From the NCBI GenBank assembly GCA_016206785.1, contig JACQQV010000021.1, positions 63,509 through 127,508 of the forward strand: DNA of 64,000 nt, written 5' to 3'. The translations under genes and the position numbers were made by a program. This document shows positions 1-13,207 of this stretch, piece after piece. The first letter of the stretch is position 1. Every line of letters starts with the position of its first letter. The notes beneath the pieces are model-generated. The model worked only from the letters and a program-made list of their open reading frames with translations, did not search any database and was not told the origin of the DNA. This stretch comes from Candidatus Omnitrophota bacterium. GTDB lineage: Bacteria > Omnitrophota > Gorgyraeia > JACQQV01.

Positions 1-46
1 TCGTCCACACCCTTCAGTTTTTCATTGAGGAGAAATGGCCACTCCC

Positions 47-1844
47 CTAGGAGGGAATCGAAAAGAGTTGCCAGAAGCGCTCCGACGCCCTGATAATAGA
101 GGGGAAGGAGTTCTTCTTGAAATCGATTTTCAATATCGCGGTGACGTTTCATTTTGTCAAGAAAGGAATCAGCAAATGGATATCCCCAGGCATGCTTTCC
201 GAGAGCGTAAACCAGGGCCTTCTGGTTTTGGGGGGAGACGCTCTCTACCTGTCTCAAGACATATCCGAATATTCGATCCTGTTTCAAACGCATCCGAAAG
301 GGTAAACCTTCAAGAGATCCTATGAGTCCCTCGACGAAATAAGGCTGATCTTCTTGACCCAGAGAACTCGCCCAATAATCGATCCTCTTCAAGAAAGCCT
401 TCTCGGAAGAACTCCACGCATTGCCGATCTCCTTAAGATAAAAAGGTTGATACATCCTGTCTAACTGTTTGACCCAAAGGAAAAGTTTTTCGAGATTTTC
501 CAGTGTCTCAGGGCGATAGACCATGTCTTGGCTTAAACCAAGATGGAAGTCGAACCGTTCGGAAGGAGATAAGCGCATATCCAATGCCTTTATTAAGTCT
601 GAAAGTTGGTTAAGATCCTGACCATGGCGATACGCAAGGGCCCACCCCAATTGACGATAGGAATACCCTCGATGCTTCAAGGAAAGGGCGAATTCTTTGA
701 ACCTCAGGAGATTCAGTTCACCCACACATCCCATCCCTAAAAGCAAAATAAGAATACCCAAAGAGACCTTTTGAAAGATTCTTGAGAAGTTTCCTAAACG
801 GACAAGTGCCAGAGCGATCACAGCAAAGAAAAAAGGAAAAAGAGGAACATAATAGCGGAATTCATAGATCCCCAGATGGAATCGACTGAGGCTTGCAGCG
901 GATAGGAAGAAGAGGGGGAACAGAAAAAAGAAATAAATTTTTTTATTCTCCTTTTCAAACTGGCAGAGGATGCCATAAGAAAAAAAGAGGGCGGCGTAAT
1001 AGACGATGTTGAAAAGTGTTATATGCGATAAGACATGGGTTCCTTCTCGATAATTGAAGGAAAAGAGTTGTATCAAACGAAGCGTCGCCAGTTTCAAGAA
1101 ACGAAAAGGAATAATCAGGGGCCGTTCCACAGAAGAATAGACAAAAGCCTCCTTGACACGATCGAAGCCATGAAAACCATAGAGGCCATTATAGAGTAGC
1201 CAGGGACTGAAACCGACGAGAAAAAAAAGGAGGAAAAGATAAAATTCTTTTTTTCGGAAGAGCCTTCGATCCTCGTAGCACCAGAAGAGAATAAAGCATG
1301 CGAGACTGACGACCTGCTGATAACTGAAATAAGTGCCGAATCCTTCTACAAGACCTAACCAGGCTGCACAACGCAGAGAATGTTTTCCATCGTACAGAAT
1401 ACGAAAGAGGAAGAAGAGTCCGAGTGCCGTAAAAAGAAGGGATTCGGCATGAACCCCCATTGCATACATCGCATAGAGGGTAAGATACGGAGGTGAAAAA
1501 AGGTAAAGGAGCGCTATATAAAGAGCTGCTTTCCTTCCAAAAAAGCGCTTCATGAACAGAGCCCATGTGAGGAACGTCCCCAATTGGAAAAAGAGGGCCG
1601 TCAGGCGAAGGACAAAAACACTTTTCCCAAAGACAAGAAACGAGGGGACCGTCAGGACTCCATAGACCAGGCTCCCGCCACTGTAGTGATCTGCAGCATA
1701 ATCAAAAAAGGGGATCTTTAATCCCTGGATGAGTTCTTTGGCAATGGTTCCTCGCTGGAGTTCTTCTGTGAAAGGCTCTGGGAAACAGTAAAGAAGGTGG
1801 AGAATTCGGGTGAGCAGAAAAACAATGGCGAGAAGAAAAATCAT
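47..1844 (-). CDS. GT-C fold membrane glycosyltransferase (ArnT/PMT-like, GT39/GT83-type), ~599 aa; absent from the supplied ORF track
   Basis: Manual minus-strand translation from ATG (revcomp of cat 1842-1844) to TAG (47-49) gives an uninterrupted ORF: MIFLLAIVFLLTRILHLLYCFPEPFTEELQRGTIAKELIQGLKIPFFDYAADHYSGGSLVYGVLTVPSFLVFGKSVFVLRLTALFFQLGTFLTWALFMKRFFGRKAALYIALLYLFSPPYLTLYAMYAMGVHAESLLF... It has at least 10 hydrophobic helices. The N-terminal region resembles ArnT/PMT-family polyprenyl-phosphate-sugar transferases. Its start abuts the stop of the upstream rSAM gene (TAAATG). Confidence 0.7.
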
Positions 1845-2930
1845 TTACGGGGCGGGTCGTCTCAAGCGCTCCTCGGCCAGAGCGAGCGCTTCGTAGTAAG
1901 GAACAGGGGCATCGAAGTTGTCCGCCTCCCCCCATCCATCCCGAGGGCAGCCACGGTAAAGGGGATGAAGACTTTTTCCGTCGGAAGGCTCTTTTTTCGC
2001 ATAAGCATCAAACCAATCAAGAAGGGTGCGCCACCCCTCGTGAACGGTTCCCTTCATTAGATTATACTTAGGGAAAGGAAAACTGACGCAAAAATTCATC
2101 TCCCCATAGGGAGTAATCGCGCAGGAGTTTTGGGCAGCCCGGCAATTCATCCGCCCTTTCCATCGCCTCGGTCCTTCCTCTCCTTTCTCGAGCGGTTTGT
2201 GGTAAACAAGAGGAAGGGGATCTTGAAGAAGTTGAGCCGCTTTGTCAGGATCGAGGCGGTAAACAAGCGGCTCGAGTGAACCGTCCGACTTGGGATGAAT
2301 TACGGTACTGGTTACGGCTCGGATTCCCCACCCCTTGGCCATCGCCTGCATCCTCTCCACTTCCTCAACGTTCACAGTCATGGCAGGAATGATGAGCGTT
2401 ACGGGGATCTTCTTCTTGATCAACCGCTCAATTCCAGAGATACATTTAGAGAAGGAGCCTGGAACAGAGGTCACTCTTTCATAAATCTTCCTTGTCGCTC
2501 CATAAAGTGAGAGGTCGACCTCCAGAGGAAGGAGAGATTGGAGACAATCGGCAATTTCCTCTGTCAGGAAGGTCCCATTTGTTTTCAGGGTAACGGCGAA
2601 TCCCTCCTCTTTAGCGCGAGTCAAAATGTCAAGAAAGTCTCTCCGCGTAAACATCTCTCCGCCTGTCAGGGTTAAAGAAAGGCATCCTTCTGTTCGGAGT
2701 TCTTTAAAAATAGAAATGATTTTCTCCGTCGGCATCTCCTCTTTCTTGGCCCTATGGGTAGGATTATAGCAATGGACGCAGCGGAGATTGCACCCGTAGG
2801 TCAGTTCCATAGTCGCCTCTAAAAGGGTCCGTGAGGATTCTGTTTTGCTAACGACGTTATCCCAAAACTCGATAGGAGAACGCTCCGGGATCGAAGGGGT
2901 TTTAGGATCTAGCGAGGGCATAGGCTTCAT
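1845..2930 (-). CDS. radical SAM/SPASM-domain peptide maturase-like protein (PqqE/MftC-like), 361 aa
   Basis: ORF track. Carries the CxxxCxxC motif LTYGCNLRCVHCYNP and a C-terminal Cys-rich SPASM-like region (CRAAQNSCAITPYGEMNFC). Paralogous to the two rSAM genes at 4040-6087. Confidence 0.8.
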   Translation of the reverse strand: MKPMPSLDPKTPSIPERSPIEFWDNVVSKTESSRTLLEATMELTYGCNLRCVHCYNPTHRAKKEEMPTEKIISIFKELRTEGCLSLTLTGGEMFTRRDFLDILTRAKEEGFAVTLKTNGTFLTEEIADCLQSLLPLEVDLSLYGATRKIYERVTSVPGSFSKCISGIERLIKKKIPVTLIIPAMTVNVEEVERMQAMAKGWGIRAVTSTVIHPKSDGSLEPLVYRLDPDKAAQLLQDPLPLVYHKPLEKGEEGPRRWKGRMNCRAAQNSCAITPYGEMNFCVSFPFPKYNLMKGTVHEGWRTLLDWFDAYAKKEPSDGKSLHPLYRGCPRDGWGEADNFDAPVPYYEALALAEERLRRPAP

Positions 2931-3831
2931 CAGGACGCGCCGCCTCCTTTAGAAAAGAAATAGCGCTTTGTTCTTTCACAAATCCGAATTGATAGCATGG
3001 GACACTCGAAAAAAGCTCTTCACAGAAGGCGAGCGCTTTTTGAATCCGTCCGCCATCCCAGTGTGGGAGGAAAAGTTGTGGGAGAAGAACCTCTGGGAAG
3101 TCTGACAGTGAAAGAGGCTTAAGAGAATTCTGAGAAGCGTGCTGAAGAAAAAAAAGTCCCCTAAGAGGCGCCGATTCTTGAGAGATTCGGAATGTATCCC
3201 CTGGCCACGGAGTTCCATGAAGGAAAAAAGAAGCGCCATCCTTTCGAATAATGACGGTCTCATCGCTCAAGATAGAAACGCCTCCTGTTCCAAGAAACAG
3301 ATGCGCAAGCGTACTCTTTCCCGAGCCAGAAGGACCCACAAAAGCTCTTCCCTCTCCCCCTTCTCGAATCCCAAGTCCATGGACAACGACCCCCTCTCCT
3401 TGACTTAAGAGGTGCACAAGAAGAATCTGCCCTAAGGGCTTCATAAATTCTGTAAAGGGCCAGCGGGGCTTTATCGGCGGAAAGAGTCTATGGAGAGGTC
3501 CAGAAACCCATCCAGGGGCAGCATAGACTTCACCTTCCGAGAAATCTTTCGTAAGGTGAGCAAGGAACTGTCTCTGCTTTGTCTTTGAATGAAAGGTTTC
3601 GATCCAATAATGGCCATCGCTTTCGTAAAGGGCCCAATGGTCTTTCAGTTCAAAAAGGACCCTTTCTTTTAAGAAATCGGGGAAACCGTTCTCGCAATGA
3701 ACCGTCAGATGAACCCTTGGTTTCCCCCGAAGAGGAAAAAGATCGTACCTGAAGGGAAAATCTCGTGGATGAGAATTTTCCCACTCAATGTGAAATCCAA
3801 TTCCTCCGATTTCGAGACTGAAAGAAGGCAT
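2902..3831 (-). CDS. HPr kinase C-domain-like P-loop protein (HprK-related kinase, as found in PqqD/lasso-peptide-kinase contexts), 309 aa
   Basis: The C-terminal half carries VVHGLGIREGGEGRAFVGPSGSGKSTLAH, which resembles the HprK P-loop GxSGxGKS(E/T). There is no N-terminal HPr-kinase regulatory domain. It lies 8 nt downstream of the candidate precursor ORF. Confidence 0.6.
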   Translation of the reverse strand: MPSFSLEIGGIGFHIEWENSHPRDFPFRYDLFPLRGKPRVHLTVHCENGFPDFLKERVLFELKDHWALYESDGHYWIETFHSKTKQRQFLAHLTKDFSEGEVYAAPGWVSGPLHRLFPPIKPRWPFTEFMKPLGQILLVHLLSQGEGVVVHGLGIREGGEGRAFVGPSGSGKSTLAHLFLGTGGVSILSDETVIIRKDGASFFLHGTPWPGDTFRISQESAPLRGLFFLQHASQNSLKPLSLSDFPEVLLPQLFLPHWDGGRIQKALAFCEELFSSVPCYQFGFVKEQSAISFLKEAARPDEAYALARS

Positions 3832-3842
3832 CTAAGGGGTAC

Positions 3843-4034
3843 CTAAGACGAGATCGCGCTGTTTCCCTGCGTTCTACTCCAACTTCGGCATCCATTTGCC
3901 CTACAGGTATTCGTACCGCTGTCAGAAGCAGAGGTCCCATTGGTGGCGCACTGAGAGAGGATCGCCTGTTCATGGTTTAACCGGATTCTAAAAATTTTCG
4001 GTGTTTCATACATCCTTTTCATTGTCTCTTCCAT
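3843..4034 (-). CDS. candidate RiPP precursor peptide, 63 aa (MEETMKRMYETPKIFRIRLNHEQAILSQCATNGTSASDSGTNTCRANGCRSWSRTQGNSAISS)
   Basis: A small ORF wedged between the rSAM gene (ends 4040) and the HprK-like gene (starts 3831). Minus-strand upstream sequence is gataAGAAGGAGGTaaagacaATG, a near-perfect Shine-Dalgarno about 7 nt before the ATG. The peptide has a charged leader-like N-terminus, then a Ser/Thr/Gly/Asn-rich segment with 3 Cys, and ends in Ser-Ser. Confidence 0.45.
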   Translation of the reverse strand: MEETMKRMYETPKIFRIRLNHEQAILSQCATNGTSASDSGTNTCRANGCRSWSRTQGNSAISS

Positions 4035-4039
4035 TGTCT

Positions 4040-5119
4040 TTACCTCCTTCTTATCTTTTCAGCCAAAAGATGCGCTGTCTGACAGAAATGATCGACCGGC
4101 ATCTCACTCTCTCCATTTTCAAAACGTGCCGGAAAAGGCATCTTCCCGCACATCGAATAGACCGTACACTGCCGACAGGGCGAATCGGTTTGATAGGTCA
4201 TTGTACGAATTTTTGGAAAAACTTCTTGGATCGCTTCCTGAAAGGAGTAATGTTTTAATGAAACTCTCGGCTCCCCAATAAAAGTACACGTTCCAAGCTC
4301 TCCCCAAGCCGAAACATGAAACGTATTGGTCCCGCAACCGCAGCGGTAAAGCCGATCGGTCGGCTCATCCGAAATTTCCACACAACGATCCTCGGTATCT
4401 ATGTCCTCGCCATTTATTTCAAGTTCAACAATTTCCTCTGGAGTGAGTCGATAGGCGCAGGGCTTCAAAGAACCATTCAAATCAGGATAGATATCGGTAC
4501 TGAAACGGAACTCCAGCCCGAAACTTTCGACCAGTTCTTTAATCTCATGGAGCCTTCCCCTGTTGAGCGTCATCGCTTTTGTTTTCACCTTGACCGGAAG
4601 TTTCCGTTCCACAAGAAGCCGCAATCCTTCAACAAATCGCTTGAAGGATCCGGGAACCTGAGTCACCGCGTCGAAAACCTCTTCCGTTCCTCCGTGGCAA
4701 CTCGTCTCAATCAAAAAAGGTGGGTCCTTCGCAAGCCGATCCGCAATCTCGGGAGTGATTATGGTGACATTCGTAAAAAGAATGAGAAGAAATCCTTTTT
4801 TCTTTGCATAGTCATAAATATCAAAAAAGTCCTTCCGCATGAAGATTTCGCCACCCGTAAGACAAAGCCAGAGACACCCCGCTTCATGGATTTCATCGAT
4901 CATCCGAAGGACCTCTTCATAAGAAAGCTCTTTTTGAATGTCCTGAGGGTTATTGTGGCAGTCGGTATAGCAGTGGACACAACGGATATTGCATTTATAG
5001 GTAAGTTCGATCTGGCCCCGGATTGGCATCCTTAAGTCATATCCCTTGTCATTGATCGCACTGCTGAAATCATGATACTCTATCTCAGGAATCGTTTCCT
5101 TCATCTTAAGGCCTCTCAC
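4040..5119 (-). CDS. radical SAM/SPASM-domain protein, 359 aa
   Basis: ORF track. Carries IELTYKCNIRCVHCYTD (CxxxCxxC) and SPASM-like C-terminal cysteines (CRQCTVYSMCGKMPF, CGCGTNTFHVSAWGELGTCTF). Confidence 0.8.
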   Translation of the reverse strand: MRGLKMKETIPEIEYHDFSSAINDKGYDLRMPIRGQIELTYKCNIRCVHCYTDCHNNPQDIQKELSYEEVLRMIDEIHEAGCLWLCLTGGEIFMRKDFFDIYDYAKKKGFLLILFTNVTIITPEIADRLAKDPPFLIETSCHGGTEEVFDAVTQVPGSFKRFVEGLRLLVERKLPVKVKTKAMTLNRGRLHEIKELVESFGLEFRFSTDIYPDLNGSLKPCAYRLTPEEIVELEINGEDIDTEDRCVEISDEPTDRLYRCGCGTNTFHVSAWGELGTCTFIGEPRVSLKHYSFQEAIQEVFPKIRTMTYQTDSPCRQCTVYSMCGKMPFPARFENGESEMPVDHFCQTAHLLAEKIRRR

Positions 5120-6087
5120 GGAGTTGAAGAAACCGCTTTGATTGGGATAAATCCGTTCTTCTTGAACATAAACTCCTTTTTAGGAAACCGGCATGGAAAA
5201 TGGGGAAGGTGATTGTAAAATCCATCGTGAAAAGAACCTTTTCGAAGGTCGTAACCCTTCATCCGGTTCCCGGAACAGAGTTGAAGCATCCCATACGCAT
5301 CGATATGAAAATTAAAGAAGCCTGATTCGCATTGGTAGGTTTCTGCCTCTCGTAATTGGATTTCCTTTTCCCGAAGCATCTGCGGATCTTTTTCCTCGAT
5401 CTCTCTCAGTTCTTTTTCAGAAAGTTGATATTCAAAAACATCCTCTGAGCCATCCAGGCGGTTCCGGATCTCCTCGCCAAATTTGAAGGAAACGTTTCCC
5501 AGACCCTTCACAAAAGCCCTGATCTTCAGAATCTCATCCCGATTCACCGTGAGTCCCGTCACCTTCAAAACAAGGTGGAGGTTTCTTTCTAAAAGAAGGT
5601 TGATCGCCCGTAATACTTTCTGAAAAGAGCCTTCTCCCTGCGTCACCTTTTCAAAAATCTCTTTCGATGTGGCATGAAGACTGATCTCGACGGAAAAAGG
5701 AGGATTTTCTTTCAGAAAATCGGAAACCTCCTCGGTAATCAAGGACCCATTGGTAAAAAGGGTGATTAAAAATCCCTTGTCCTTGGCAACCTTATAGATC
5801 TGGAAAAAATCTTTTCGCATAAAGATTTCGCCACCCGTCAAGGTAAGCCAAAGACATCCTCCTTTATGAAGTTCACCTAAGATCCGTAGGACTTCCTCAG
5901 TTTGAAGTTCTTTGGGAAAATATTGAGGATGATTATAGACATCTGTGTAGCAATGGATACAGTGAAGATTGCAGCGGCAAGTCAATTCCCATTGTCCGAT
6001 AAGAGGGAGTCTTCCCCTCTCACTCTTTGCGACGAGCCGCTTGAAAAACTCACGATCCGTAACAGAAGAAAGAAAATCGCATGCCAC
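5116..6087 (-). CDS. radical SAM/SPASM-domain protein, 323 aa
   Basis: ORF track. Carries WELTCRCNLHCIHCYTD (CxxxCxxC) and C-terminal Cys residues (CESGFFNFHIDAYGMLQLCSGNRMKGYD). It overlaps the downstream paralogue by 4 nt, which suggests translational coupling. Confidence 0.8.
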   Translation of the reverse strand: MACDFLSSVTDREFFKRLVAKSERGRLPLIGQWELTCRCNLHCIHCYTDVYNHPQYFPKELQTEEVLRILGELHKGGCLWLTLTGGEIFMRKDFFQIYKVAKDKGFLITLFTNGSLITEEVSDFLKENPPFSVEISLHATSKEIFEKVTQGEGSFQKVLRAINLLLERNLHLVLKVTGLTVNRDEILKIRAFVKGLGNVSFKFGEEIRNRLDGSEDVFEYQLSEKELREIEEKDPQMLREKEIQLREAETYQCESGFFNFHIDAYGMLQLCSGNRMKGYDLRKGSFHDGFYNHLPHFPCRFPKKEFMFKKNGFIPIKAVSSTP

Positions 6088-6092
6088 CCGCT

Positions 6093-6395
6093 CTATTCTC
6101 CCTTTTCCGCACCCGCAAAATGTTTCGGCTCTATGAGTCCTTCCCTCCTCAGTTTTTTAAGGAAGGAAAGCACATCATGCTTCACCCTTTTGGGTTCTGC
6201 TTCGAAGTTTTGTTCAATGTGTGTGATAAGTTCCTGAACGGTTCTACTCCCGTCCAACGCCTCCCAGATCGCTGCGCCAACAGGAGTGAGTTTGAGGAGG
6301 TCTCCCTCATCCTGATCCACGAGGATCGCTTCTTCCTCTACCCGTCGCCAAGGAATTCTTCCATTCTTCTCGAAGATATCCGTAAGTCTAAACAT
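6093..6395 (-). CDS. PqqD-family (RRE-like) small protein, 100 aa
   Basis: MFRLTDIFEKNGRIPWRRVEEEAILVDQDEGDLLKLTPVGAAIWEALDGSRTVQELITHIEQNFEAEP... matches the PqqD/RRE pattern: P..R..GE..L......L.N..A..IW.L.DG..T..E. Confidence 0.65.
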   Translation of the reverse strand: MFRLTDIFEKNGRIPWRRVEEEAILVDQDEGDLLKLTPVGAAIWEALDGSRTVQELITHIEQNFEAEPKRVKHDVLSFLKKLRREGLIEPKHFAGAEKGE

Positions 6396-7947
6396 GAAAA
6401 TGGATGAGGCGTAAAAAATAATTTTTTGTCTCTAGCCAAAGAAGAAAAAGGATTTTCCTTGCTTCTCTTCCCATTTTGTAGGTGAGGCCCTCACGAAAAT
6501 AGATCCAAAAAAGACGGAGATGTAGAAGTAAGGGATGGAAACCGAGACGCGCCGCTTCAAGTAGGTTCTCTTTTGCCAGACGAGACTCTTTTTTCTTGAG
6601 AAAGGCGGAACCGATCCAGAATTTCAGAATCGCCTCCGGCCCTTTGAGTTCGAGCGACTTCCGGAAAGCACTCAGGGCTCTATCCCACTCTCCCTGCTCG
6701 AAAAAAAGAGACCCTATCCCATAATAAGCCGTGGCCAGTCTGGGATTCTTCGAAAGGGCCTCTTCATAATAAAAGAGCGCCTGGGAAAAATCTTTCTCCG
6801 CCCTAAATGTATGGCCCAAACCGCAGAGTGCATGGGCGTGATTCGGGTCGAGGGTAAGAATCTTTTTGTACTCTTCCTCTGCCTTTTTCCATTGACCAAG
6901 ATTCTGATAGGCCGGTCCAAAATTGTTGTAGGCGGTGGCGTAGGTGGGATCCGCGGAAACCGCTTCTCGATAAAGTCGGGAGGCCTCTGTTTTCTCTCCC
7001 CTTTTTAGAAAGAGCAAAGAAAGATTGTAAAAGCTTGCAGCATCTTTTGGATTGACCCCAAGGGCCTTTCGATACTCCAAAATCGTCTCCTCCACCTTCC
7101 CCTCCTCTTCAAAGGCTTGTGCAGATCTTTTGTGATGATAAGCATCGTTTGGAGCGGAGGGGTCTCGGATAAGTTGTGCAAGGGCGTCTCCAAAATATTT
7201 ATAAGGAAGTGGAGTAAATCCCCCCTCGACAGAATAGGCAATCGTGACACAATCACTCCGGATACCCTTTGATCGCAAGGCGTCGACAACATTCTCTGGG
7301 AAGAGCCACGGTTTCTTACAGCGAGGGTCTTCATCCCCATGTTCTAAAAACCCTGAGATGAGGAAATCGGTATCAATATCAAGAAGAACCTCTTCTTCAA
7401 TAGTGGGAAGGTTCTGAAGAGTGCAGACAATCAATGGAAAGCCATAAAGTGTTGCCTGAGCCTTTGTTCCCTCAATACGGATATCGGTAAACGCTTCTGG
7501 ATGGTTTCTCCGAAATTCTCGAAAGATATAACCCATCTCTTTTTCCCAAGAAACCCCTCGGGGGGCTTCCGGGGTCGCCCAATAAAAAGCCCGAAGAAGG
7601 CCCTGCCGGAGAGCAGGGCAGATATAATTTCCGATATGGACGAAGGACTCTGTCCCTCGATCTGTGAAGTTCCAAAAGATCTTTTGTTGGGTAAGCGCTT
7701 CTAATTCTTGAGGAGAGGAGATACTGAGGAGATCGGAGAAGGACCTCTCAGGAATCCAATTGAAGTCGATGTGGGCATCGATATGGAGGAGGATGCGGTT
7801 TGAAAAGTTCCCTCTCTGCCAGGCCCAGAGGGCCTCATCATGATCTTCCATCAGGGTGACGGCAGGGAGAGGATCAATTCCTACCCGATCGTCTTGGGGA
7901 GTTGAAGACCTTCTTAAAGAAGGTTGGGTCGCTAACGCGTCGGTCAC
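6388..7947 (-). CDS. fusion protein: N-terminal UPF0489-like domain (putative metal-dependent hydrolase fold) plus C-terminal TPR repeats, 519 aa
   Basis: The N-terminus carries MEDHDEALWAW...ILLHIDAHIDFNW, which resembles the EDHHEVL...HFDSHPD signature I associate with UPF0489. The C-terminus carries at least 6 TPR-like repeats (AYNNFGPAYQNLGQWKKAEEEYKKILTLDPNHAHALCGLGHTF...). Confidence 0.6.
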   Translation of the reverse strand: MTDALATQPSLRRSSTPQDDRVGIDPLPAVTLMEDHDEALWAWQRGNFSNRILLHIDAHIDFNWIPERSFSDLLSISSPQELEALTQQKIFWNFTDRGTESFVHIGNYICPALRQGLLRAFYWATPEAPRGVSWEKEMGYIFREFRRNHPEAFTDIRIEGTKAQATLYGFPLIVCTLQNLPTIEEEVLLDIDTDFLISGFLEHGDEDPRCKKPWLFPENVVDALRSKGIRSDCVTIAYSVEGGFTPLPYKYFGDALAQLIRDPSAPNDAYHHKRSAQAFEEEGKVEETILEYRKALGVNPKDAASFYNLSLLFLKRGEKTEASRLYREAVSADPTYATAYNNFGPAYQNLGQWKKAEEEYKKILTLDPNHAHALCGLGHTFRAEKDFSQALFYYEEALSKNPRLATAYYGIGSLFFEQGEWDRALSAFRKSLELKGPEAILKFWIGSAFLKKKESRLAKENLLEAARLGFHPLLLHLRLFWIYFREGLTYKMGREARKILFLLWLETKNYFLRLIHFHV

Positions 7948-7950
7948 CGA

Positions 7951-8235
7951 TTATTTCTCTCGGATGATTCCGGTTTCCTTAAATTGCGCCAGAAGCCCCA
8001 AAAGATCTTTCTCTGCAACGTGAGGATCTATCTCAAATTCGGAGATAACCGTCTCGCAGACCTCTCGGACCGATTTCTTTCCATCAATCAGTTCCCAAAT
8101 CCTCGCCCCTACCTCATTCAACGTGAAGATGGCAGGTTCTTCCCCTAAGGTTTGACGAATAGGGACAAGGACCGTTTCTTCCGCGATTTTCCTTGATACA
8201 ATATTGGGAGATTTTTCGTAACTTGTTTCTAGCAC
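7951..8235 (-). CDS. PqqD-family (RRE-like) small protein, 94 aa
   Basis: ...PNIVSRKIAEETVLVPIRQTLGEEPAIFTLNEVGARIWELIDGKKSVREVCETV... fits the PqqD pattern. This is the second stand-alone copy in the locus. Confidence 0.65.
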   Translation of the reverse strand: MLETSYEKSPNIVSRKIAEETVLVPIRQTLGEEPAIFTLNEVGARIWELIDGKKSVREVCETVISEFEIDPHVAEKDLLGLLAQFKETGIIREK

Positions 8236-8278
8236 TGTAAATAACCTCGTTTCATCATAAAAGATTTAGACCGGTTTG

Positions 8279-9085
8279 TCAAGGTTTTTGTGGGGTGAGA
8301 ATCGCATTGCAGTTGCTGAAATCCATCTCCACAACTTTAAAGTTCGAGTTCTCTATCTCACTCAAAAGCTCCGAGGGTTTGCTGAAAATGTGCCAATAGT
8401 GACCCATAAAGCAGACGTCTCCTTCTTCTAGCTCCCGATTGCCGCCAGAAAGGATTGCAAGCCACTTTTTGAGCCGGAACTTCCAACCCTTTTCCCGGAA
8501 ATCATCTCTACCACAAAACTCTAGATAAAAAAATCCGTCGTCTTTGAGATGAGATCGCATCTTTCTTAAAAAGGCGATCCGCCTTGTGCGGGTAGGAATT
8601 TCGCTATACATCGACTGGCTCAGAAAAAGCGCGTCATGCTTTCTTGCCGGTGATAAACTATCAAGTACATTTCCCACTTCAAAGTGGCAATTTTTTAAGG
8701 AAAGGGCACGGACATGTTCTTTTGCTCTTTCTACAAGATCCTGGGAGGTCTCGATTCCCGTAACCTCAAATCCTAATTTCGCCAAGGCGAGGGATTCCCG
8801 ACCACCGCCAGACATCAGTACAAGACACTCCTTTTTTCCTTTTAAATATTTTGTCACAAATTGAGATTCTTCTGGGCTCAGTCCCCTCGTTCGTACCGCT
8901 TCCCCCGCCAAAGCCTCTGAAAAGTCCCTCCGATTATAAAACTGTTCAACAAATTTTTCGAGATCTTTAGGTTTTGAGAGAACTAGTACAAGTGACCCAA
9001 AGGCTGAAGAAATCTTTTCCTGAAAACGATTCAAGAGAAGGTCGATGCGCACCAAAACGGAAACAAGGAAAAACCGAGCACTCAT
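8279..9085 (-). CDS. class I SAM-dependent methyltransferase, 268 aa
   Basis: Carries the motif I-like segment CLVLMSGGGRESLALAKLGFEVTGIETSQDLVERAKEH, and DALFL/post-I motifs. Confidence 0.65.
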   Translation of the reverse strand: MSARFFLVSVLVRIDLLLNRFQEKISSAFGSLVLVLSKPKDLEKFVEQFYNRRDFSEALAGEAVRTRGLSPEESQFVTKYLKGKKECLVLMSGGGRESLALAKLGFEVTGIETSQDLVERAKEHVRALSLKNCHFEVGNVLDSLSPARKHDALFLSQSMYSEIPTRTRRIAFLRKMRSHLKDDGFFYLEFCGRDDFREKGWKFRLKKWLAILSGGNRELEEGDVCFMGHYWHIFSKPSELLSEIENSNFKVVEMDFSNCNAILTPQKP

Positions 9086-10161
9086 CTATTTTTTAAGAGG
9101 GGTTCAATGACTTCTACCAAGGCTTGGGCAGCGAGTCGATGACCACGTTCATTGAGATGAAACGGGTCTCCTTTTCTATAAAGTTTTTCTCTCAGGTGAC
9201 GTTGTAAACTTTCCCGGATATCGATCAGCGGAACCTGCAAGTTGTGCGAAATGCGTCGGAAACGATAAAAGGAGGGACGGATTTTTAAGATCCCCAGCTC
9301 GTGAAGATCCGGAAAATAGGCAAACAACACTTGAGCGTGAGAGCGACGTGCTAACTGAACCAGCTCGCGCAACCGTTGTTCCGCCTCCTGCCAGTAGCGC
9401 GCCTCCCGAGATCCTGTTGCGTTGTAAGAGACCTGAAGCGCCCAAAAAGAAATAACGGAACCGATGCGCTGATCCAAAAATTTCAATAAGAAACTGTGGG
9501 GCAGCAAGGAAGAGTAGAAATTGTGAAAAGGCGACGATGGAGAAGAAACCTCGGGTTCCGGTAAAAGACAAAGCCTCCCTTGATCATCGACGTTAAAGAG
9601 GGATGGGTAAATGTCGTTCCTATAGAAATTAACAATAACAATATCCGGTCTCAAAAGAGGAAGGAGTTCCTTAAAGATACGAACTTCCTGTTCAGTATTA
9701 TAATTATCAGAGGCGGCATTGAATACAATAGGAGGATTACGTGGAAATTTTTCCTTGAGTAACACTTCAAGTCTTTTACAAAAAGTTGTCTCAAAAGGAA
9801 CCCCGTAGCCAAATGTGATAGAGTCTCCCAAACAGAGGACGACATCGTCTTTTTCTTTCACCTTCGGCCATTCCGGTCCCCGCCAACCCTGTGTATTGAT
9901 TTCATACCATGCCCCTTGCCAGCGAATGCGTGCTCCTCGTCGATACCGGTGGACGACCTCAGGATCTGCGACAAAAAGACCGGGAATGTCGGACATGAAA
10001 AGATAAGGGTCTGGCGCATTTTCCGGCAAGGCCTTGATCACCTCCGCTTCCGGCATACGACGAGAGACAAAAACAAACCGATAAAATCGGAGGATCCCTT
10101 CTGCCGCCAAGCAAGCGAGGCACAAGCCGACTACCACAAGAAAAAATCGTGTACGAGTCAC
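9082..10161 (-). CDS. SGNH/GDSL-family hydrolase with N-terminal signal/TM segment, 359 aa
   Basis: Carries VVLCLGDSITFGYGV (the GDSx block). The N-terminus MTRTRFFLVVVGLCLACLAAEG is hydrophobic. The start codon, by my reading of the sequence, is GTG (cac 10159-10161). Confidence 0.65.
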   Translation of the reverse strand: MTRTRFFLVVVGLCLACLAAEGILRFYRFVFVSRRMPEAEVIKALPENAPDPYLFMSDIPGLFVADPEVVHRYRRGARIRWQGAWYEINTQGWRGPEWPKVKEKDDVVLCLGDSITFGYGVPFETTFCKRLEVLLKEKFPRNPPIVFNAASDNYNTEQEVRIFKELLPLLRPDIVIVNFYRNDIYPSLFNVDDQGRLCLLPEPEVSSPSSPFHNFYSSLLPHSFLLKFLDQRIGSVISFWALQVSYNATGSREARYWQEAEQRLRELVQLARRSHAQVLFAYFPDLHELGILKIRPSFYRFRRISHNLQVPLIDIRESLQRHLREKLYRKGDPFHLNERGHRLAAQALVEVIEPLLKNR

Positions 10162-10166
10162 GGCTG

Positions 10167-10175
10167 ATTATACCA
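10167..10175 (-). promoter_or_regulatory. extended -10 promoter candidate (TGGTATAAT on minus strand) for the SGNH/methyltransferase/RiPP operon
   Basis: Plus-strand attatacca 10167-10175 is minus-strand TGGTATAAT. It sits only 6 nt upstream of the GTG start at 10161, which implies a leaderless or near-leaderless transcript. Confidence 0.35.
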
Positions 10176-10178
10176 CTC

Positions 10179-10207
10179 TTGACCTCCTGAAAAAACAGAT
10201 TTATGCT
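10179..10207 (+). promoter_or_regulatory. sigma-70-type promoter candidate for the 10231 gene: TTGACC-N17-TATGCT
   Basis: TTGACC at 10179-10184, a 17-nt spacer, then TATGCT at 10202-10207, about 24 nt before the ATG. Confidence 0.4.
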
Positions 10208-10230
10208 AAACTATATCGAGAAAGAGAAGG

Positions 10231-12126
10231 ATGGTAGAAACAGTGAAGCCTATTGGTGTTTTAACCGATCTTCTTCAAATAACGGACATTCCAGAGATTA
10301 TCGATCTTTTGATCGCGTCCAAGAAGGCCCGTTTCACCATTGAAGGCTTCAGCATGTACCCCACCCTCCGAGTAGGAGACATCGTTGAGGTGGACCCCCT
10401 AACAAAAGAAACGCTTGAAGTAGGAGACCTTGTTGTTTTTCAAAAAGAAAAGAAACTCATCTGTCACCGCCTGGTAGAGATTTTTGAGAAAAACGGGGAG
10501 GCGTGGATTAAGACAAAGGGGGATACGGTCGAGGAGAGTGACACCCCACTCGCCCTTCGTCAGATCCTGGGAAAGGTGACGCGCATTGAGCGAGACGGAA
10601 TTCCTCGGATCCCCTCGGCCGTTCCTCAAAAACTTTCCTTTGCAGAAATCATCTTCTTCTCTGCCTATCGGCAATTCGGGGGAAAACTCAGACCGAAACT
10701 GAGAACAGTTTTCTTACGCAGTCTCTCTTCTCTTTTATTCCGCCGCGTGTATCGCTTCCTGTTCCGTCCCGATGTGATTTATTCTGTCAGAATTCCAACT
10801 GCTTCGACTCCTGATCCGAAATTCTGGCGGTCTGTTCAAAGTCTCCCGGGGGCGAATGAGTCTTTACAGGACGCTTCGGTCTATCGCTTTTTTGCAAAGG
10901 TAGGCAAAAATGTCGTTGGAAGTCTTGAGGTGCGGACTCTCGATAAAACCGCTTCGCAATGGAGGGTTTCCCATCTTTTCGTGAGGGCAAGGTACCGGGG
11001 GTGCCACGTTGCAACAACACTCCTGAGAAGATCGTTTCAGAGGCTCAGACGACAAGGAGCCTCCTTATTAAGCATAGAAGTGGGTCCTCAAAATCGTCCC
11101 GCACTTTCCCTTCTAAAACAACTAGGCTTCGACGACGCCGTACAAAAAGATCCTTTCGTCCTTCAGAAAGACCTTTCGTTCCCGCTCAAGCGCTTAAGAG
11201 GCGAAAAAGAACTGCAACCGTTTCTTTATCACGCTCTTCCCTCTGATACGCTCAAAGAAAGCTTCCTCAGGAGCGTCGCAAAACACCTCTTCTTCGAACA
11301 GGCCCTTCTTGAGATAGACACCGTTTTCAAAAATGCGGGAATACCTTTTATCGTACAGAAGGGAATGGCACTTGCGTATACCCTTTACCCCGACCCTGCG
11401 ACGCGACCGATGGTGGATATCGATCTGTATCTACGTAAAAACGATGTCCCCTCGGCCATATCCCTTTTAGAAGGACTCGGCTATGAACTGGGAGCAGCCA
11501 AGTTTCGAGAAGAACTGATCACCTTCGGGGGAGAGCTCAGCTTCCACAAAAAAAATGCCCCTTTTGTTGAACTCCACTGGTGCCTTGAACAGTATGAGCG
11601 ATTGAAAGGAATTGTAAAAGTTGACGAGGAAGACCTGTGGAAAAGGACTGTCTCCTATACGATTTCAGGAAGAAAATTTCTGACCCTCTGTTCAGAGCAT
11701 CAACTGCTCGCGCTTTCCATCCACCTCGGTCTCATTCATCGGTTTCGTGGCTCTCTCAAGTGGTTTCTGGACATCGATCAGTTCGTCATGAAATTCGGGG
11801 AGGACCTGGATTGGGAGGAACTTTTTCAAACCGCACGGCGATGGGGAATTGAACGGGTGTTTTGCCAAGTGCTCCTTGCAACCCAGGAGCTCTTCAACAC
11901 CCCCCTTCCTCCTCTTCCGATTCAAAATTCTTCATTCTTCCTGAGACATCCCATCTTTCAATGGTTCCTCCCAGATCGTCCCTCCGACCGCCTCCGGGTC
12001 CTCTTCCGGATCTTCTTCCCGAGCCGGGAATGGCTCATCTACCGATATCGCCTCAAACGGCGCGACCTCATCCCCTTCCACCGCTTCCTCCATCCTCTCT
12101 TTGTTCTTATCGGCAAGACAAGGTAG
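10231..12126 (+). CDS. tri-domain protein: N-terminal S24/S26-type peptidase-like domain, central GNAT acetyltransferase, C-terminal nucleotidyltransferase-like (NTP_transf_5-type) domain, 631 aa
   Basis: The N-terminus carries EGFSMYPTLRVGDIVEVD...DLVVFQKEKKLICHRLVEIF...KTKGDTV (compare signal-peptidase/LexA G-S-M-x-P-T-L...GD motifs). The central region ...SLEVRTL...VRARYRGCHVATTLLRRSFQRLRRQGASLLSIEVGPQN is GNAT-like. I assign the C-terminal region to uncharacterised nucleotidyltransferases. The upstream RBS is GAGAAGGatg. Confidence 0.6.
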   Translation: MVETVKPIGVLTDLLQITDIPEIIDLLIASKKARFTIEGFSMYPTLRVGDIVEVDPLTKETLEVGDLVVFQKEKKLICHRLVEIFEKNGEAWIKTKGDTVEESDTPLALRQILGKVTRIERDGIPRIPSAVPQKLSFAEIIFFSAYRQFGGKLRPKLRTVFLRSLSSLLFRRVYRFLFRPDVIYSVRIPTASTPDPKFWRSVQSLPGANESLQDASVYRFFAKVGKNVVGSLEVRTLDKTASQWRVSHLFVRARYRGCHVATTLLRRSFQRLRRQGASLLSIEVGPQNRPALSLLKQLGFDDAVQKDPFVLQKDLSFPLKRLRGEKELQPFLYHALPSDTLKESFLRSVAKHLFFEQALLEIDTVFKNAGIPFIVQKGMALAYTLYPDPATRPMVDIDLYLRKNDVPSAISLLEGLGYELGAAKFREELITFGGELSFHKKNAPFVELHWCLEQYERLKGIVKVDEEDLWKRTVSYTISGRKFLTLCSEHQLLALSIHLGLIHRFRGSLKWFLDIDQFVMKFGEDLDWEELFQTARRWGIERVFCQVLLATQELFNTPLPPLPIQNSSFFLRHPIFQWFLPDRPSDRLRVLFRIFFPSREWLIYRYRLKRRDLIPFHRFLHPLFVLIGKTR

Positions 12127-12147
12127 CTCATTCGTCGTTCGGCGTTC

Positions 12148-12248
12148 GGGACTAAGTCCCTATGACGGTAAGACTTGTTCCTTGCCAAGGCGGGACTTAG
12201 TCCCGCCTTCATGGGGGGAAAGTCTAAGGCGAAGAGGGACTTAGTCCC
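12148..12248. repeat. three copies of the 13-nt palindromic motif GGGACT(W)AGTCCC at exact 44-bp spacing between convergent genes
   Basis: Copies at 12148-12160 (GGGACTAAGTCCC), 12192-12204 and 12236-12248 (GGGACTTAGTCCC). The middle copy is embedded in a 25-nt near-perfect palindrome, CAAGGCGGGACT-T-AGTCCCGCCTTC. Confidence 0.6.
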
Positions 12249-12350
12249 GGTTTGCTCTGTTTGCTGTTTAGGACAGGTAAGCGGTGCTCGAACCACACCA
12301 GGGGCTACTTATCCTTGGGGACAAATTAGAGCCAGGTCGGAAAACGTCCC

Positions 12351-13206
12351 TCAGACGCGGACCCAGCGAATTCCTTTTTCCTTGCGGAACCAAGTCTCCT
12401 GACGTTTGGCGTATTGGCGGGTTAAGCGTTGAATATGGGTAATAGCCTCTTCGAGGGAAGATTCCCCTTTGAGGTAAGAGAAAAGTTCTTGAAGCCCGAT
12501 GATTCTTTTTGCAGTAAAACTCAGTCTCTTCCGGAGAAGCCTCTTAACTTCCGCAACAACATCATTGCGAATCATCTTTTCCACCCGACGATCGATCCTC
12601 TGATAAAGAACTTTTCGGGGGTGGCGTAATCCGATTTTCTGAATCCGAAACAAAGCTGAGAACCCACCTCCCCCCTCTGCGAACTCCGAGGGTTTTCTCC
12701 CGGTGACTTCGTAAATCTCAAGGGCGCGAATCAGACGATAGGTATCGTTGGGATGAATCTTTTTTGCCCGACGGGGATCGATCGCACGTAATCTTTCGTA
12801 CAAATAAGCGTTTCCCTTCTCCTTCACAAGCCTTGAATATTTTTTCCGAATCGTGGGATCGGCTTTGACGGGAGCGTGCTTTCCTCCCAAAAGGGCCTTG
12901 AGATAAAAACCGCTCCCCCCCACAAGGATTGGCACCTTTCTTCGGCGTGCAATGTCTTGAATAACACTTTTTGCGCGTTGGGAAAATTCAGCCGCGCTAA
13001 ATTCCTTATGTAGAGGGAGAAAACCGATAAGATGATGGGGAATTTTCTTTTGATCCTCTGGGAGGGGTTGGTTGGTGAGGATTGGAACGCCTCGGTACAC
13101 CTGCATGGCGTCGCAGGAGATAATTTCACCTTTGCATCGTTTCGCCAGGCGGAGGGCAAGCCGGCTTTTCCCGCTGGCGGTAGGGCCAACAATGACAATA
13201 AGTTTT
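12351..13206 (-). CDS. miaA: tRNA dimethylallyltransferase MiaA
   Basis: LIVIVGPTASGKSRLALRLAK...ISCDAMQVYRGVPILTNQP... The track ORF extends to 13298 and overlaps the upstream ATPase gene. The likely true start is a GTG (VKKLIVIVGPTASGKS) at about 13206. Confidence 0.85.
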
Positions 13207-13207
13207 T

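Follow-up and report, generated by a model that had tools for sequence, protein, structure and literature searches.

The window (the whole 64-kb stretch of DNA that was analysed) contains three radical SAM (rSAM) genes and a gene for a 63-aa precursor peptide, all within one tightly packed minus-strand operon (Table 1). ORFs and Pfam Radical_SAM matches confirmed the three rSAM paralogues named in the original prediction. Its placing of them in a RiPP-type operon held too, since the operon has a genuine precursor gene as well as recognition proteins of the PqqD type. The precursor gene is located between the rSAM2 gene and the gene of a putative HprK-like kinase. In related loci the gene order is constant: methyltransferase, PqqD, rSAM1, rSAM2, one or more precursors, HprK-like kinase, rSAM3 and nucleotidyltransferase. 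The 65 related loci with enough flanking sequence are called complete here; other counts are based on 66, 76, 79, 80 or 82 loci. In the related loci inspected, the conserved core includes neither a transporter nor a dedicated leader protease. An Rfam scan of positions 1-14000 of the window gave no match.

Table 1. Genes of the operon and its flanks, with positions in the window.
Feature	Position	Strand	Remarks
PMT_2 (GT-C type) membrane glycosyltransferase-like gene	1..1844	-	Pfam PMT_2 E 1e-9
rSAM3, third paralogue	1845..2930	-	361 aa; Pfam Radical_SAM E 2.5e-24
HprK-related P-loop protein, putative peptide kinase	2902..3831	-	Weak NCBIfam matches to ScmC, HprK_rel_B and HprK_rel_A
Precursor peptide	3843..4034	-	Small ORF, 63 aa: MEETMKRMYETPKIFRIRLNHEQAILSQCATNGTSASDSGTNTCRANGCRSWSRTQGNSAISS
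rSAM2, radical SAM with SPASM-like C-terminal domain	4040..5119	-	359 aa from GTG; Pfam Radical_SAM E 2.1e-20
rSAM1, radical SAM with short twitch-like C-terminal domain	5116..6087	-	323 aa; Pfam Radical_SAM E 1.9e-25
PqqD_b, discrete RRE-type peptide-binding protein	6093..6395	-	Pfam PqqD E 7.5e-19; directly upstream of rSAM1
Peptide-arginase-like (PF12640) N-terminal domain with C-terminal TPR repeats	6388..7947	-	Accessory protein; strong TPR hits
PqqD_a, second RRE-type protein	7951..8235	-	Pfam PqqD E 3.5e-18
Class I SAM-dependent methyltransferase	8279..9085	-	Pfam Methyltransf_25/31/11
GDSL/SGNH-type hydrolase	9082..10161	-	Pfam Lipase_GDSL_2 E 1.3e-12; first gene of the operon
Fusion of S24/S26-like peptidase, GNAT acetyltransferase and NTP_transf_5 nucleotidyltransferase	10231..12126	+	Pfam NTP_transf_5 E 4.7e-46, Acetyltransf_1 E 1e-11, Peptidase_S24 E 2.4e-6; divergent from the operon

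Some of the flanking genes are shared with related loci and others are not. A methyltransferase homologue was found upstream of PqqD in 52 of the 65 complete loci. The hydrolase gene, which overlaps the methyltransferase gene by 4 nt, had no homologue among 80 related loci and is peculiar to the window locus. NTP_transf_5 genes lie downstream of rSAM3 in Nitrospira-type loci, and the peptidase-GNAT-NTP_transf_5 fusion of the window is also present in L081, an 81%-identical relative. At the other end of the operon, the ATG of the PMT_2 gene (1844) directly abuts the rSAM3 stop codon (TAAATG), and its 614 open codons extend beyond the window edge. L081 also carries this gene downstream of rSAM3; homologues were present in only 2 of 80 genome loci, and its membership of the cassette is uncertain.

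All three rSAM proteins matched Pfam Radical_SAM (PF04055) at 74-90 bits against a cut-off of 29.5, and the motifs CNLHCIHC, CNIRCVHC and CNLRCVHC as well as the GGE motif are visible in their alignment. The original prediction held that they share one unusual cluster motif, YxCN(L/I)(R/H)C(V/I)HCY(N/T). This fits rSAM2 (YKCNIRCVHCYT) and rSAM3 (YGCNLRCVHCYN); however, rSAM1 (CRCNLHCIHCYT; cluster cysteines C39/C43/C46) has Cys in place of Tyr, and CN(L/I)xCxHCY is common in SPASM/twitch rSAM enzymes. Identity among the three is 30-41% (rSAM1 is 41% identical to rSAM2 and 33% to rSAM3), with BLASTP E-values of 1e-53 to 1e-74. No further ORF in the 64-kb window aligns full-length to them. A short, weak match (54 aa, E 1e-4) falls in the ORF at 17547-18863.

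The prediction of functional triplication could be set against the possibility that homologous loci carry a single copy. All three rSAM copies were found in 64 of 65 complete loci, and no related locus contained extra copies. Pairwise comparison of the paralogues resolved three orthologue groups, with 57-62% identity within and 29-33% between groups, and 224 of 225 nearest neighbours belonged to the same group. At least five phyla share the cassette in the same gene order. It is widespread in Nitrospirota, with further occurrences in Omnitrophota, Elusimicrobia, Rokubacteria/Methylomirabilota, Planctomycetota, and others, and it is frequent in the set of related genomes recovered, most of which are Nitrospira. 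Because nearly all complete loci keep the three copies and these fall into three separate orthologue groups, the rSAMs are, as judged by protein comparison, anciently diverged and not the product of recent duplication. That redundant or decaying copies arose by a recent tandem duplication, for which the loss of five conserved Cys from the window rSAM3 could speak, is therefore close to negligible in probability: the three groups are deep and span several phyla, and the reduced rSAM3 is intact, 66-76% identical across four separate sequences, and retains its rSAM motifs.

The C-terminal regions are where the paralogues differ most clearly from what had been predicted, namely Cys-rich SPASM extensions in all three. 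Pfam SPASM (PF13186) gave no match at E<=10 for the three window rSAMs and six orthologues, a search in which HMMER filters may drop weak hits. [quoted passage not shown] Based on these Cys counts, rSAM2 was assigned as SPASM-like and rSAM1 as twitch-like. Thus "Cys-rich" describes rSAM2, with eight C-terminal Cys, but is overstated for rSAM1 (three) and the window rSAM3 (four), both of which fall short of the seven to eight of SPASM.

In rSAM2 the pattern is C241-x13-C255-x-C257-x15-C273-x36-C310-x2-C313-x5-C319-x21-C341 (354-aa numbering), and each of these eight Cys is at least 99% conserved in 81 sequences. Its C-x17-C-x36-C-x2-C-x5-C part has spacing identical to the SPASM motif of AhbD. 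Relative to the SPASM motif CX2CX5CX3C, rSAM2 is missing the fourth Cys, and two additional Cys lie upstream. An AF2 model of rSAM2 (pLDDT 84) aligned over its full length to SuiB, PqqE, and anSME, with E 2.7e-13, TM 0.70 and 377 columns for SuiB and TM 0.65-0.67 over about 375 columns for anSME. A sequence-based PDB profile search matched the rSAM core only (residues 27-199), and the C-terminal Cys lie outside this match. rSAM2 is the only copy that combines a two-cluster-type Cys set with a SPASM-like predicted fold, and is predicted to bind the corresponding clusters.

The auxiliary-cluster candidates of rSAM1 are C253, C271, and C299, which are invariant in 76 orthologues. A fourth Cys occupies position 242 in 74% of orthologues and is Glu in the window. 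The spacing read from the sequence is C253-x12-G266-x4-C271. The AF2 model of rSAM1 (pLDDT 77) contains a hairpin (259-269) and a helix (286-296); C253 and C271 flank the predicted hairpin and C299 lies past the helix, with the protein ending shortly thereafter. Its best PDB matches were SkfB, MoaA, PqqE, and BlsE, of which SkfB, MoaA, and BlsE are twitch enzymes. The C-terminal domain of rSAM1 therefore looks twitch-like and is predicted to bind an auxiliary cluster.

rSAM3 varies with lineage. The window protein has lost five of the eight Cys of its family, retains C263, C281, and C328, and has gained C270; P254, A265, G318, an alignment gap, Y325, and P342 stand where most orthologues have Cys. 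The same loss is seen in its three closest relatives (66-76% identical). From these alignments, rSAM3 is SPASM-like in most lineages and has a degenerate set of four Cys in the lineage of the window. A pseudogene was ruled out, as the gene is intact and conserved in four relatives. A link between the Cys loss and the ISS-for-RPS change in the C-terminal motif was also considered and found unsupported, since other lineages without Arg-Pro keep a full rSAM3.

The 4-nt overlap of rSAM1 and rSAM2 in the original prediction depends on the rSAM2 start. From GTG 5119, the start overlaps the rSAM1 stop (GTGA at 5116-5119); the public annotation (P0001, 354 aa) instead places the start at ATG 5104, with GAGAGG lying 7 nt before it, and the two genes are then separated by 11 nt. 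L081 has ATGA at this junction and Ile in place of the internal Met of the window, and on this comparison the GTG start with the overlap is favoured. An 8-nt overlap of the ATGnnTGA type is available in 69 of 76 loci. Close coupling of the rSAM1 and rSAM2 genes is, from these gene junctions, a trait of the family.

About 98 small ORFs homologous to the precursor were found at its position in 79 loci. In the window, GAAGGAGG lies 8 nt upstream of the precursor ATG. The family shares a YxxPx(L/I) leader (YETPKI in the window; consensus YSPPQL) and EQAIL-x2-C; the leader is conserved and the core variable, and a locus holds one to three divergent copies. Essentially every precursor keeps Cys at three positions (EQAILxxC, C-R, C-K/R). 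The total number of Cys is 3 in 66 precursors, 5 in 19, and 7 in 5, beside the same three rSAMs. The peptide ends in Ser in 91 of 92 precursors, which fits phosphorylation by the HprK-like kinase.

Both PqqD proteins that had been predicted are genuine, but the second does not belong with the rSAMs. Upstream of rSAM1, a PqqD gene was found in 64 of the 65 complete loci, and the best NCBIfam match of PqqD_b was the lasso PqqD chaperone (E 5.5e-12, sub-cut-off). Just 4 of the 65 complete loci gave two PqqD hits, and the TPR protein that L081 has at the position of PqqD_a carries a fused PqqD domain. PqqD_a was therefore assigned, from gene context, to the accessory arginase-TPR module and not to the rSAM trio.

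The kinase candidate overlaps the rSAM3 start by 29 nt in the window, and a 4-nt HprK/rSAM3 overlap is possible in about 56 of 66 loci. The window protein scored 19-22.5 bits against TIGR04352 and TIGR04355, under the 200-bit cut-off. Among its orthologues, 27 of 27 matched HprK_rel_B (best E 6e-12) and 24 of 27 HprK_rel_A, and a few matched true HPr kinase models. Walker A residues (GxSGxGKxT) and D190-E191 are invariant. A sequence-based PDB profile search gave P-loop-level matches only, with HPr kinase at E 0.014, which by itself carries no weight. A relationship to the HprK superfamily is supported by the orthologue matches; the assignment as a kinase, drawn from sub-threshold family hits and context, is putative.

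PF12640 is a peptide arginase family. The arginase-like domain of the window (residues 30-127 of a 519-aa protein) scored 27.7 bits against Pfam UPF0489/PF12640, where the cut-off is 27, and matched NCBIfam pept_arginase at E 4.7e-8 and 32.9 bits, where it is 350. The domain is accessory, with about 10 of 82 loci carrying it. The third precursor Cys is followed by Arg at 8 of 8 loci with an arginase and by Lys at 57 of 60 others (raw counts that ignore kinship). This covariation supports the tentative peptide-arginase assignment.

None of the window rSAMs scored above any specific NCBIfam cut-off, and the best models (MftC, NirJ, AhbD, ScmE/F) are generic matches. The sactipeptide and ranthipeptide models StsB, AlbA, SkfB, and PapB were all far under cut-off. 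The prerequisites of such systems, conserved core Cys and SPASM/twitch rSAMs, are present. SPASM/twitch maturases such as SuiB, CteB, PqqE, and SkfB share the layout of the cassette enzymes (an rSAM core, a Cys-flanked beta-hairpin, a helix, and further Cys), likewise act on a Cys-containing precursor with a leader, and match the predicted folds best. Identity to the solved SPASM/twitch structures is 11-21%. The cassette differs from them in having a discrete PqqD, no fused N-terminal RRE, and three different enzymes.

The same building blocks, an HprK-like protein, PqqD, and paired rSAMs, are found in the SynChlorMet (ScmC/ScmD/ScmE/ScmF) and NCBIfam/TIGRFAMs HprK-related kinase A/B systems, for which we know of no demonstrated product. 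SynChlorMet families were among the top matches of the window proteins, all sub-cut-off (ScmC 23/125 bits, ScmD 45/100, ScmE 76-81/400, ScmF 64-87/400), and the cassette differs by its three rSAMs, NTP_transf_5 enzyme, and methyltransferase. Lasso peptide tailoring modules (paeninodin PadeK, pseudomycoidin PsmK/PsmN, BsfK/BsfB1/BsfN) also resemble the cassette: their leaders carry YxxPxL, their precursors end in Ser, and they combine a discrete PqqD-type RRE with an HprK-family kinase and an 'uncharacterised nucleotidyltransferase'. For lasso peptides with such leaders, experiments have shown that phosphorylation of the C-terminal Ser by an HprK-type kinase depends on leader and RRE, and that a nucleotidyltransferase adds a hexose to the Ser phosphate. 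The cassette has the corresponding terminal Ser, YxxPxL leader, PqqD RRE, and NTP_transf-type partner. A lasso peptide locus was nonetheless rejected: neither the operon nor the related loci contain a cyclase (Asn-synthetase-like C) or B2 leader protease domain. In the cassette, three rSAMs are the candidate core-forming enzymes, and the kinase activity is presumptive. Enteropeptin and OspR-type arginase systems likewise place an rSAM and a methyltransferase in the RiPP locus together with an arginase, putative in the cassette, and have a core Cys beside Arg. However, the enteropeptin arginase is pfam00491 while that of the window is pfam12640-like and TPR-fused, and Arg precedes Cys in enteropeptin but follows it in the window cassette.

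Considering this evidence, we favour, at a probability of about 0.6, the reading that the three rSAMs are ancient, non-redundant maturases of a conserved RiPP cassette that would do different jobs, with their chemistry deduced from context. The C-terminal domains of the paralogues differ in type, and three versions of one reaction would thus be unexpected. A discrete PqqD would bind the lasso-type YxxPx(L/I) leader and present the peptide. The overlapping genes would supply rSAM1 and rSAM2 in a fixed ratio, and this pair would perform the central radical chemistry on the core with its Cys, most likely by forming thioether links of the sactionine or ranthionine type from the conserved Cys, with one enzyme able to serve several sites. 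rSAM3, coupled to the HprK-like kinase gene, would perform a different radical step. The kinase may phosphorylate the invariant C-terminal Ser, the NTP_transf_5 enzyme may decorate that phosphate, and the methyltransferase may add a methyl group. In the lineage of the window, the PF12640-type arginase may convert the Arg after the third Cys to ornithine, mimicking the Lys found elsewhere. The Cys count, always odd (3, 5, 7), is left unexplained by simple thioether formation, and metal binding or disulfide formation are other possible roles of these Cys.

An obligate hetero-complex of rSAM1 and rSAM2, possibly with rSAM3, was also considered. One subunit would be catalytic and the others would serve as scaffold, peptide clamp or electron conduit, in the manner of TrnC/TrnD of thuricin CD. 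That system also uses more than one rSAM for a single RiPP and has adjacent genes, but its two enzymes are both SPASM-type and act on two peptides, whereas the cassette has three enzymes with differing auxiliary domains and usually one precursor type. Overlap of the rSAM1 and rSAM2 genes in 69 of the 76 loci favours equimolar synthesis, and auxiliary Cys have been lost in rSAM1 and the window rSAM3. Against this, CxxxCxxC and GGE are intact in all three and invariant within each orthologue group, which argues that each would be catalytically active. The model is rather unlikely; it overlaps with the preferred reading of three distinct maturases and does not exclude it.

The original prediction had suggested instead that every rSAM makes a single crosslink, one for each of the three core Cys. 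The window precursor does have exactly three Cys, and three Cys positions are conserved across the family. However, 5-Cys and 7-Cys precursors occur beside the same trio with no extra rSAM copies, so it is by chance that the window precursor has as many Cys as there are enzymes. Moreover, the enzymes differ in auxiliary-domain type, and in known sactipeptide and ranthipeptide systems several links are installed by one rSAM. Site-specific triplication is thus improbable.

A pathway to a peptide-derived redox cofactor, similar to PQQ or mycofactocin, rather than to a secreted or bioactive peptide is very improbable. Those systems (PqqD/PqqE and MftB/MftC) also employ a discrete PqqD-family chaperone and an rSAM on a small peptide; the best family matches here are of the MftC, PqqE, and PqqD types, that of rSAM2 to MftC being near whole-length; the cassette is widespread in Nitrospira genomes; and its core lacks a transporter or protease. 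Yet the scores are less than half of the cut-offs, with 115 (rSAM2), 91 (rSAM3), and 84 (rSAM1) against 265 bits for MftC (TIGR03962), and 53-76 against 381 for PqqE. The precursor is unlike MftA or PqqA, and its core varies between the Cys, as do Cys number and, from one to three, the divergent precursors of a locus. Together with lineage-specific tailoring genes, these traits are hallmarks of natural-product RiPPs and not of an invariant cofactor.

The cassette probably makes a modified peptide for which no description was found, and it matches no specific curated NCBIfam family. The literature search found no paper describing it, which is weak evidence, with most subscription journals outside the search. 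A new RiPP class is tentatively proposed, at somewhat less than even odds: a lasso-type leader/RRE/kinase/nucleotidyltransferase module joined to three specialised rSAMs (twitch, SPASM, and lineage-variable), whose products might carry new crosslinks involving the conserved Cys and the neighbouring Lys or ornithine, and a phospho- or glyco-phospho-Ser C-terminus.

To our knowledge, radical SAM RiPP pathways almost always have one, and sometimes two, rSAM enzymes. Three distinct rSAMs kept together across several phyla therefore suggest a multi-step radical maturation of which we found no description, and the cassette provides three candidate enzymes for it. Nitrospira dominate nitrite oxidation in soils, waters, and treatment plants, and we know of little work on modified peptides from them; the product may matter for their ecology. 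The family also offers natural experiments, with paralogues predicted to have two, one or reduced auxiliary-cluster sites, precursors with 3, 5 or 7 Cys, and a Lys position swapped for Arg where an arginase is added. This variation allows precise mass spectrometry predictions. The window's own share is modest: it is one family member, from an Omnitrophica genome, whose rSAM3 is reduced and which carries an arginase module in addition.

The gene cassette of the window combines three non-redundant orthologue groups of radical SAM proteins (rSAM1, rSAM2 and rSAM3), which differ in their type of auxiliary domain, with coupled gene pairs and with a conserved leader-bearing precursor and tailoring set. 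As originally predicted, the three genes are real paralogues, and the BLASTP E values among them range from 1e-53 to 1e-74. Identity is 41% between rSAM1 and rSAM2 and 33% between rSAM1 and rSAM3 by alignment, and 30% between rSAM2 and rSAM3 by BLASTP. CxxxCxxC and GGE are present in all three proteins in the window. The longer cluster motif that had been quoted for all of them holds for rSAM2 and rSAM3 but not for rSAM1, which has Cys for the leading Tyr. At core residues 31, 50, 82 and 158 of rSAM1, where the protein encoded in the window carries Gly, Val, Thr and Val, 88-97% of orthologues have extra Cys.

The distribution of the cassette was examined by scanning one genome per species, which gave 131 stretches encoding rSAM2 relatives. 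Eighty loci were kept, and the window proteins were mapped onto their six-frame ORFs. These loci are mostly from Nitrospira and other Nitrospirota, with Omnitrophota, Elusimicrobia, Rokubacteria/Methylomirabilota, Planctomycetota, and Deltaproteobacteria also represented. The genes always come in the order methyltransferase, PqqD, rSAM1, rSAM2, precursor (one to three copies), HprK-like gene, rSAM3, and NTP_transf_5. All three rSAMs were found in 64 of the 65 loci with enough flank. Moreover, the rSAM sequences (225 in all) separate cleanly into three groups (57-62% identity within, 29-33% between), and the nearest neighbour lies in the same group for all but one of them (224/225). Taken together, the three groups and the completeness of the loci show that the triplication is old and that each copy has been retained. 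Recent duplication, the reading which the original prediction had named as damaging to functional triplication, is excluded by the same two results. The sole complete locus without all three rSAMs is L010 (1619-7836). It holds a simpler cousin cassette of PqqD, one rSAM (36% identity), HprK-like protein and NTP_transf_5, with a solitary rSAM2 orthologue 1.5 kb away.

On the minus strand of the window, a single tightly packed operon runs from 10161 down past position 1, with spacing from a 29-nt overlap up to a 43 nt gap. A Candidatus Omnitrophica MAG contig matches the sequence identically.

Genes of the rSAM operon and the divergent neighbouring gene (window positions)
Feature	Position	Strand	Remark
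GDSL hydrolase	9082-10161	-	first in transcription order
SAM methyltransferase	8279-9085	-	
PqqD_a (RRE-type)	7951-8235	-	
PF12640-like (peptide arginase family) domain + TPR repeats	6388-7947	-	
PqqD_b (RRE-type)	6093-6395	-	
rSAM1	5116-6087	-	
rSAM2	4040-5119	-	
Precursor, 63-aa ORF	3843-4034	-	
HprK-related P-loop protein, 309 aa	2902-3831	-	
rSAM3	1845-2930	-	
PMT_2-type (GT-C type) membrane glycosyltransferase-like protein, at least 614 aa	1-1844	-	ATG 1844, runs off window
S24-peptidase/GNAT/NTP_transf_5 fusion	10231-12126		divergent from operon

The 4-nt overlap of rSAM1 and rSAM2 is GTGA at 5116-5119; in the public annotation, rSAM2 begins at ATG 5104 instead. In L081, an 81%-identical relative, ATGA is found at the homologous junction and Ile replaces the internal Met of the window protein, so the overlapping start proposed originally is the better supported one. 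An in-frame start with an 8-nt overlap of the rSAM1 stop (ATGnnTGA-type) is available in 69 of 76 loci. About 56 of 66 loci would allow the HprK-like stop and the rSAM3 start to overlap by 4 nt, and in the window these two genes overlap by 29 nt (2902-2930). With such overlaps available across the loci, the cassette thus has two coupled pairs: rSAM1 and rSAM2 form one, the kinase and rSAM3 the other.

The start of the PMT_2 gene abuts the rSAM3 stop (TAAATG), and the gene is absent from the ORF list because it runs off the window edge. It is also located 3' of rSAM3 in L081 (11254-11703), and was found in just two of the 80 genome loci (L002, 2682-4754; L058, 16099-18411). Outside the operon, a 438-aa minus-strand ORF at 17547-18863 aligns weakly with the cluster region of rSAM3 over just 54 aa (E 1e-4) and is probably an unrelated radical SAM enzyme.

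The C-terminal extensions had been proposed to be SPASM or twitch domains. By published definition, a SPASM domain uses seven to eight Cys for two clusters; twitch, its truncated form, has one cluster and three or four Cys. rSAM2 has eight C-terminal Cys, which in the numbering of the 354-aa protein are C241, C255, C257, C273, C310, C313, C319, and C341, each with a conservation of 99% or more among 81 sequences. They include the CX10GX4C hairpin signature and CX2CX5C, and the spacing C255-x17-C273-x36-C310-x2-C313-x5-C319 equals the corresponding part of the AhbD SPASM motif. SuiB, PqqE, and anSME align with the AF2 model of rSAM2 (pLDDT 84) along the whole length of the model. rSAM1 stops shortly past the first Cys of the second motif (CX2CX5C). 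Its C253 and C271 flank a predicted hairpin and C299 follows a helix; all of them are invariant, whereas a fourth Cys, present in 74% of orthologues, is absent in the window. Structurally, its predicted fold is closest to those of the twitch enzymes SkfB, MoaA, and BlsE. In most lineages rSAM3 shares the eight-Cys pattern of rSAM2. In the window rSAM3 and its three closest relatives (P0122, P0123, and P0124; 66-76% identical), five of the eight Cys have been lost, C263, C281, and C328 are kept, and C270 is gained, with the remainder of the protein conserved. In this Omnitrophota clade, the domain seems to have undergone a lineage-specific reduction from SPASM type to one-cluster type, and a similar lineage-specific loss of SPASM Cys has been documented for AhbD. 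The Cys patterns thus fit putative auxiliary Fe-S domains, but in three unlike versions, and none of nine proteins tested matched Pfam SPASM even at E<=10. In a profile search of PDB sequences, the alignment was confined to the rSAM core.

The 63-aa precursor ORF is preceded by a GGAGG ribosome-binding site. Homologues were found at the same position in essentially every locus (93 by BLAST), and loci seemingly without a precursor were found to contain one on inspection. Conservation is strong in the N-terminal part (consensus KKPYSPPQLFRVELNQEQAILSAC), which includes YxxPx(L/I). Next comes a variable stretch of 14-15 residues in which Ser, Thr, Gly, Ala, and Asn are abundant, followed by two more Cys, usually as C-R and C-K. 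The usual C-terminus is DSGxRPS; the terminal Ser is present in 91 of 92 precursors, the lone exception being a fragment.

Every one of the 27 orthologues of the 309-aa protein matched HprK-related kinase B of NCBIfam (best E 6e-12), and kinase A was matched by 24 of them. The P-loop is invariant, as is an Asp-Glu pair 18-19 residues past the P-loop Lys. The NTP_transf_5 match is strong (E 4.7e-46). In lasso-peptide pathways, the C-terminal Ser of the precursor receives a phosphate on its side chain from an HprK-family kinase, in a leader-dependent reaction stimulated by a PqqD-type RRE, and an 'uncharacterised nucleotidyltransferase' then attaches a hexose to the phosphate. The leaders of these phosphorylated peptides contain YxxPxL. 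The cassette shares with this module the leader motif, a discrete PqqD (whose best match is the lasso PqqD chaperone), a kinase-like protein, a nucleotidyltransferase, and the invariant terminal Ser; unlike lasso systems, it has no lasso cyclase or protease. From these shared parts and the lasso precedent, we infer that the C-terminal Ser would be phosphorylated and then further decorated.

The PF12640-like domain, from the peptide arginase family, reaches the gathering score marginally in the window (27.7 vs 27 bits). It occurs in about ten loci (among them the window, L003-L006, L008, L009, L015, L018, and L081) together with a second PqqD, separate or fused. The residue after the third precursor Cys is Arg in 8/8 cases with the arginase-like domain and Lys in 57/60 without it; two of the three exceptions in the latter group lie on contigs too short to reveal an arginase gene. 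Arg at -3 from the C-terminus is found in 0/9 cases with the domain and in 83/89 without. This covariation gives a Fisher p of 2e-8, uncorrected for phylogeny. Conversion of Arg to ornithine would restore a Lys-like amine beside the third Cys, which suggests that an amine at this site matters and that Arg50 of the window precursor (3886-3888) may be the arginase target. A precedent exists in enteropeptins, where an rSAM, an arginase, and a methyltransferase modify neighbouring Cys and Arg residues; the arginase there is of a different family and the Cys/Arg order is reversed. In L081, the region 2607-7039 encodes three PqqD domains, one fused C-terminally to a TPR protein at the arginase-TPR position, and AbiEii-like and IPP-transferase-like genes lie just upstream.

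None of the cassette components reached the curated cut-off of a named NCBIfam system, the nearest being the SynChlorMet cassette and HprK-related kinase systems, and the precursor had no family match in NCBIfam or Pfam. Judged by its sequences, the cassette lies outside every family tested. No description of it was found in the literature searched, which was incomplete. The cassette resembles an rSAM RiPP pathway of the SPASM/twitch type to which a lasso-type kinase module has been added, and the value of the analysis lies more in this family-wide picture than in the single window locus.

In the proposed pathway, PqqD would bind the precursor leader, and rSAM1 and rSAM2 would jointly modify the Cys-containing core, most likely through thioether links, with one enzyme acting at several sites. 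rSAM3 would carry out a separate radical step, and the kinase, nucleotidyltransferase, and methyltransferase (in the window also the arginase) would complete the peptide. One main rival is a complex of the paralogues, similar to TrnC/TrnD, with only some of its members catalytic. Another, strict specificity of one enzyme per Cys, is disfavoured. The original prediction had matched three enzymes to three Cys, which is not a rule of the system, since the same three rSAMs accompany precursors with three (66 peptides), five (19), or seven (5) Cys after the leader. The exceptions to an odd number are one four-Cys peptide and one truncated fragment with a single Cys; this odd parity fits no explanation tried. 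A cofactor pathway, the third main rival, is also disfavoured, given the variable core and the multiple precursors.
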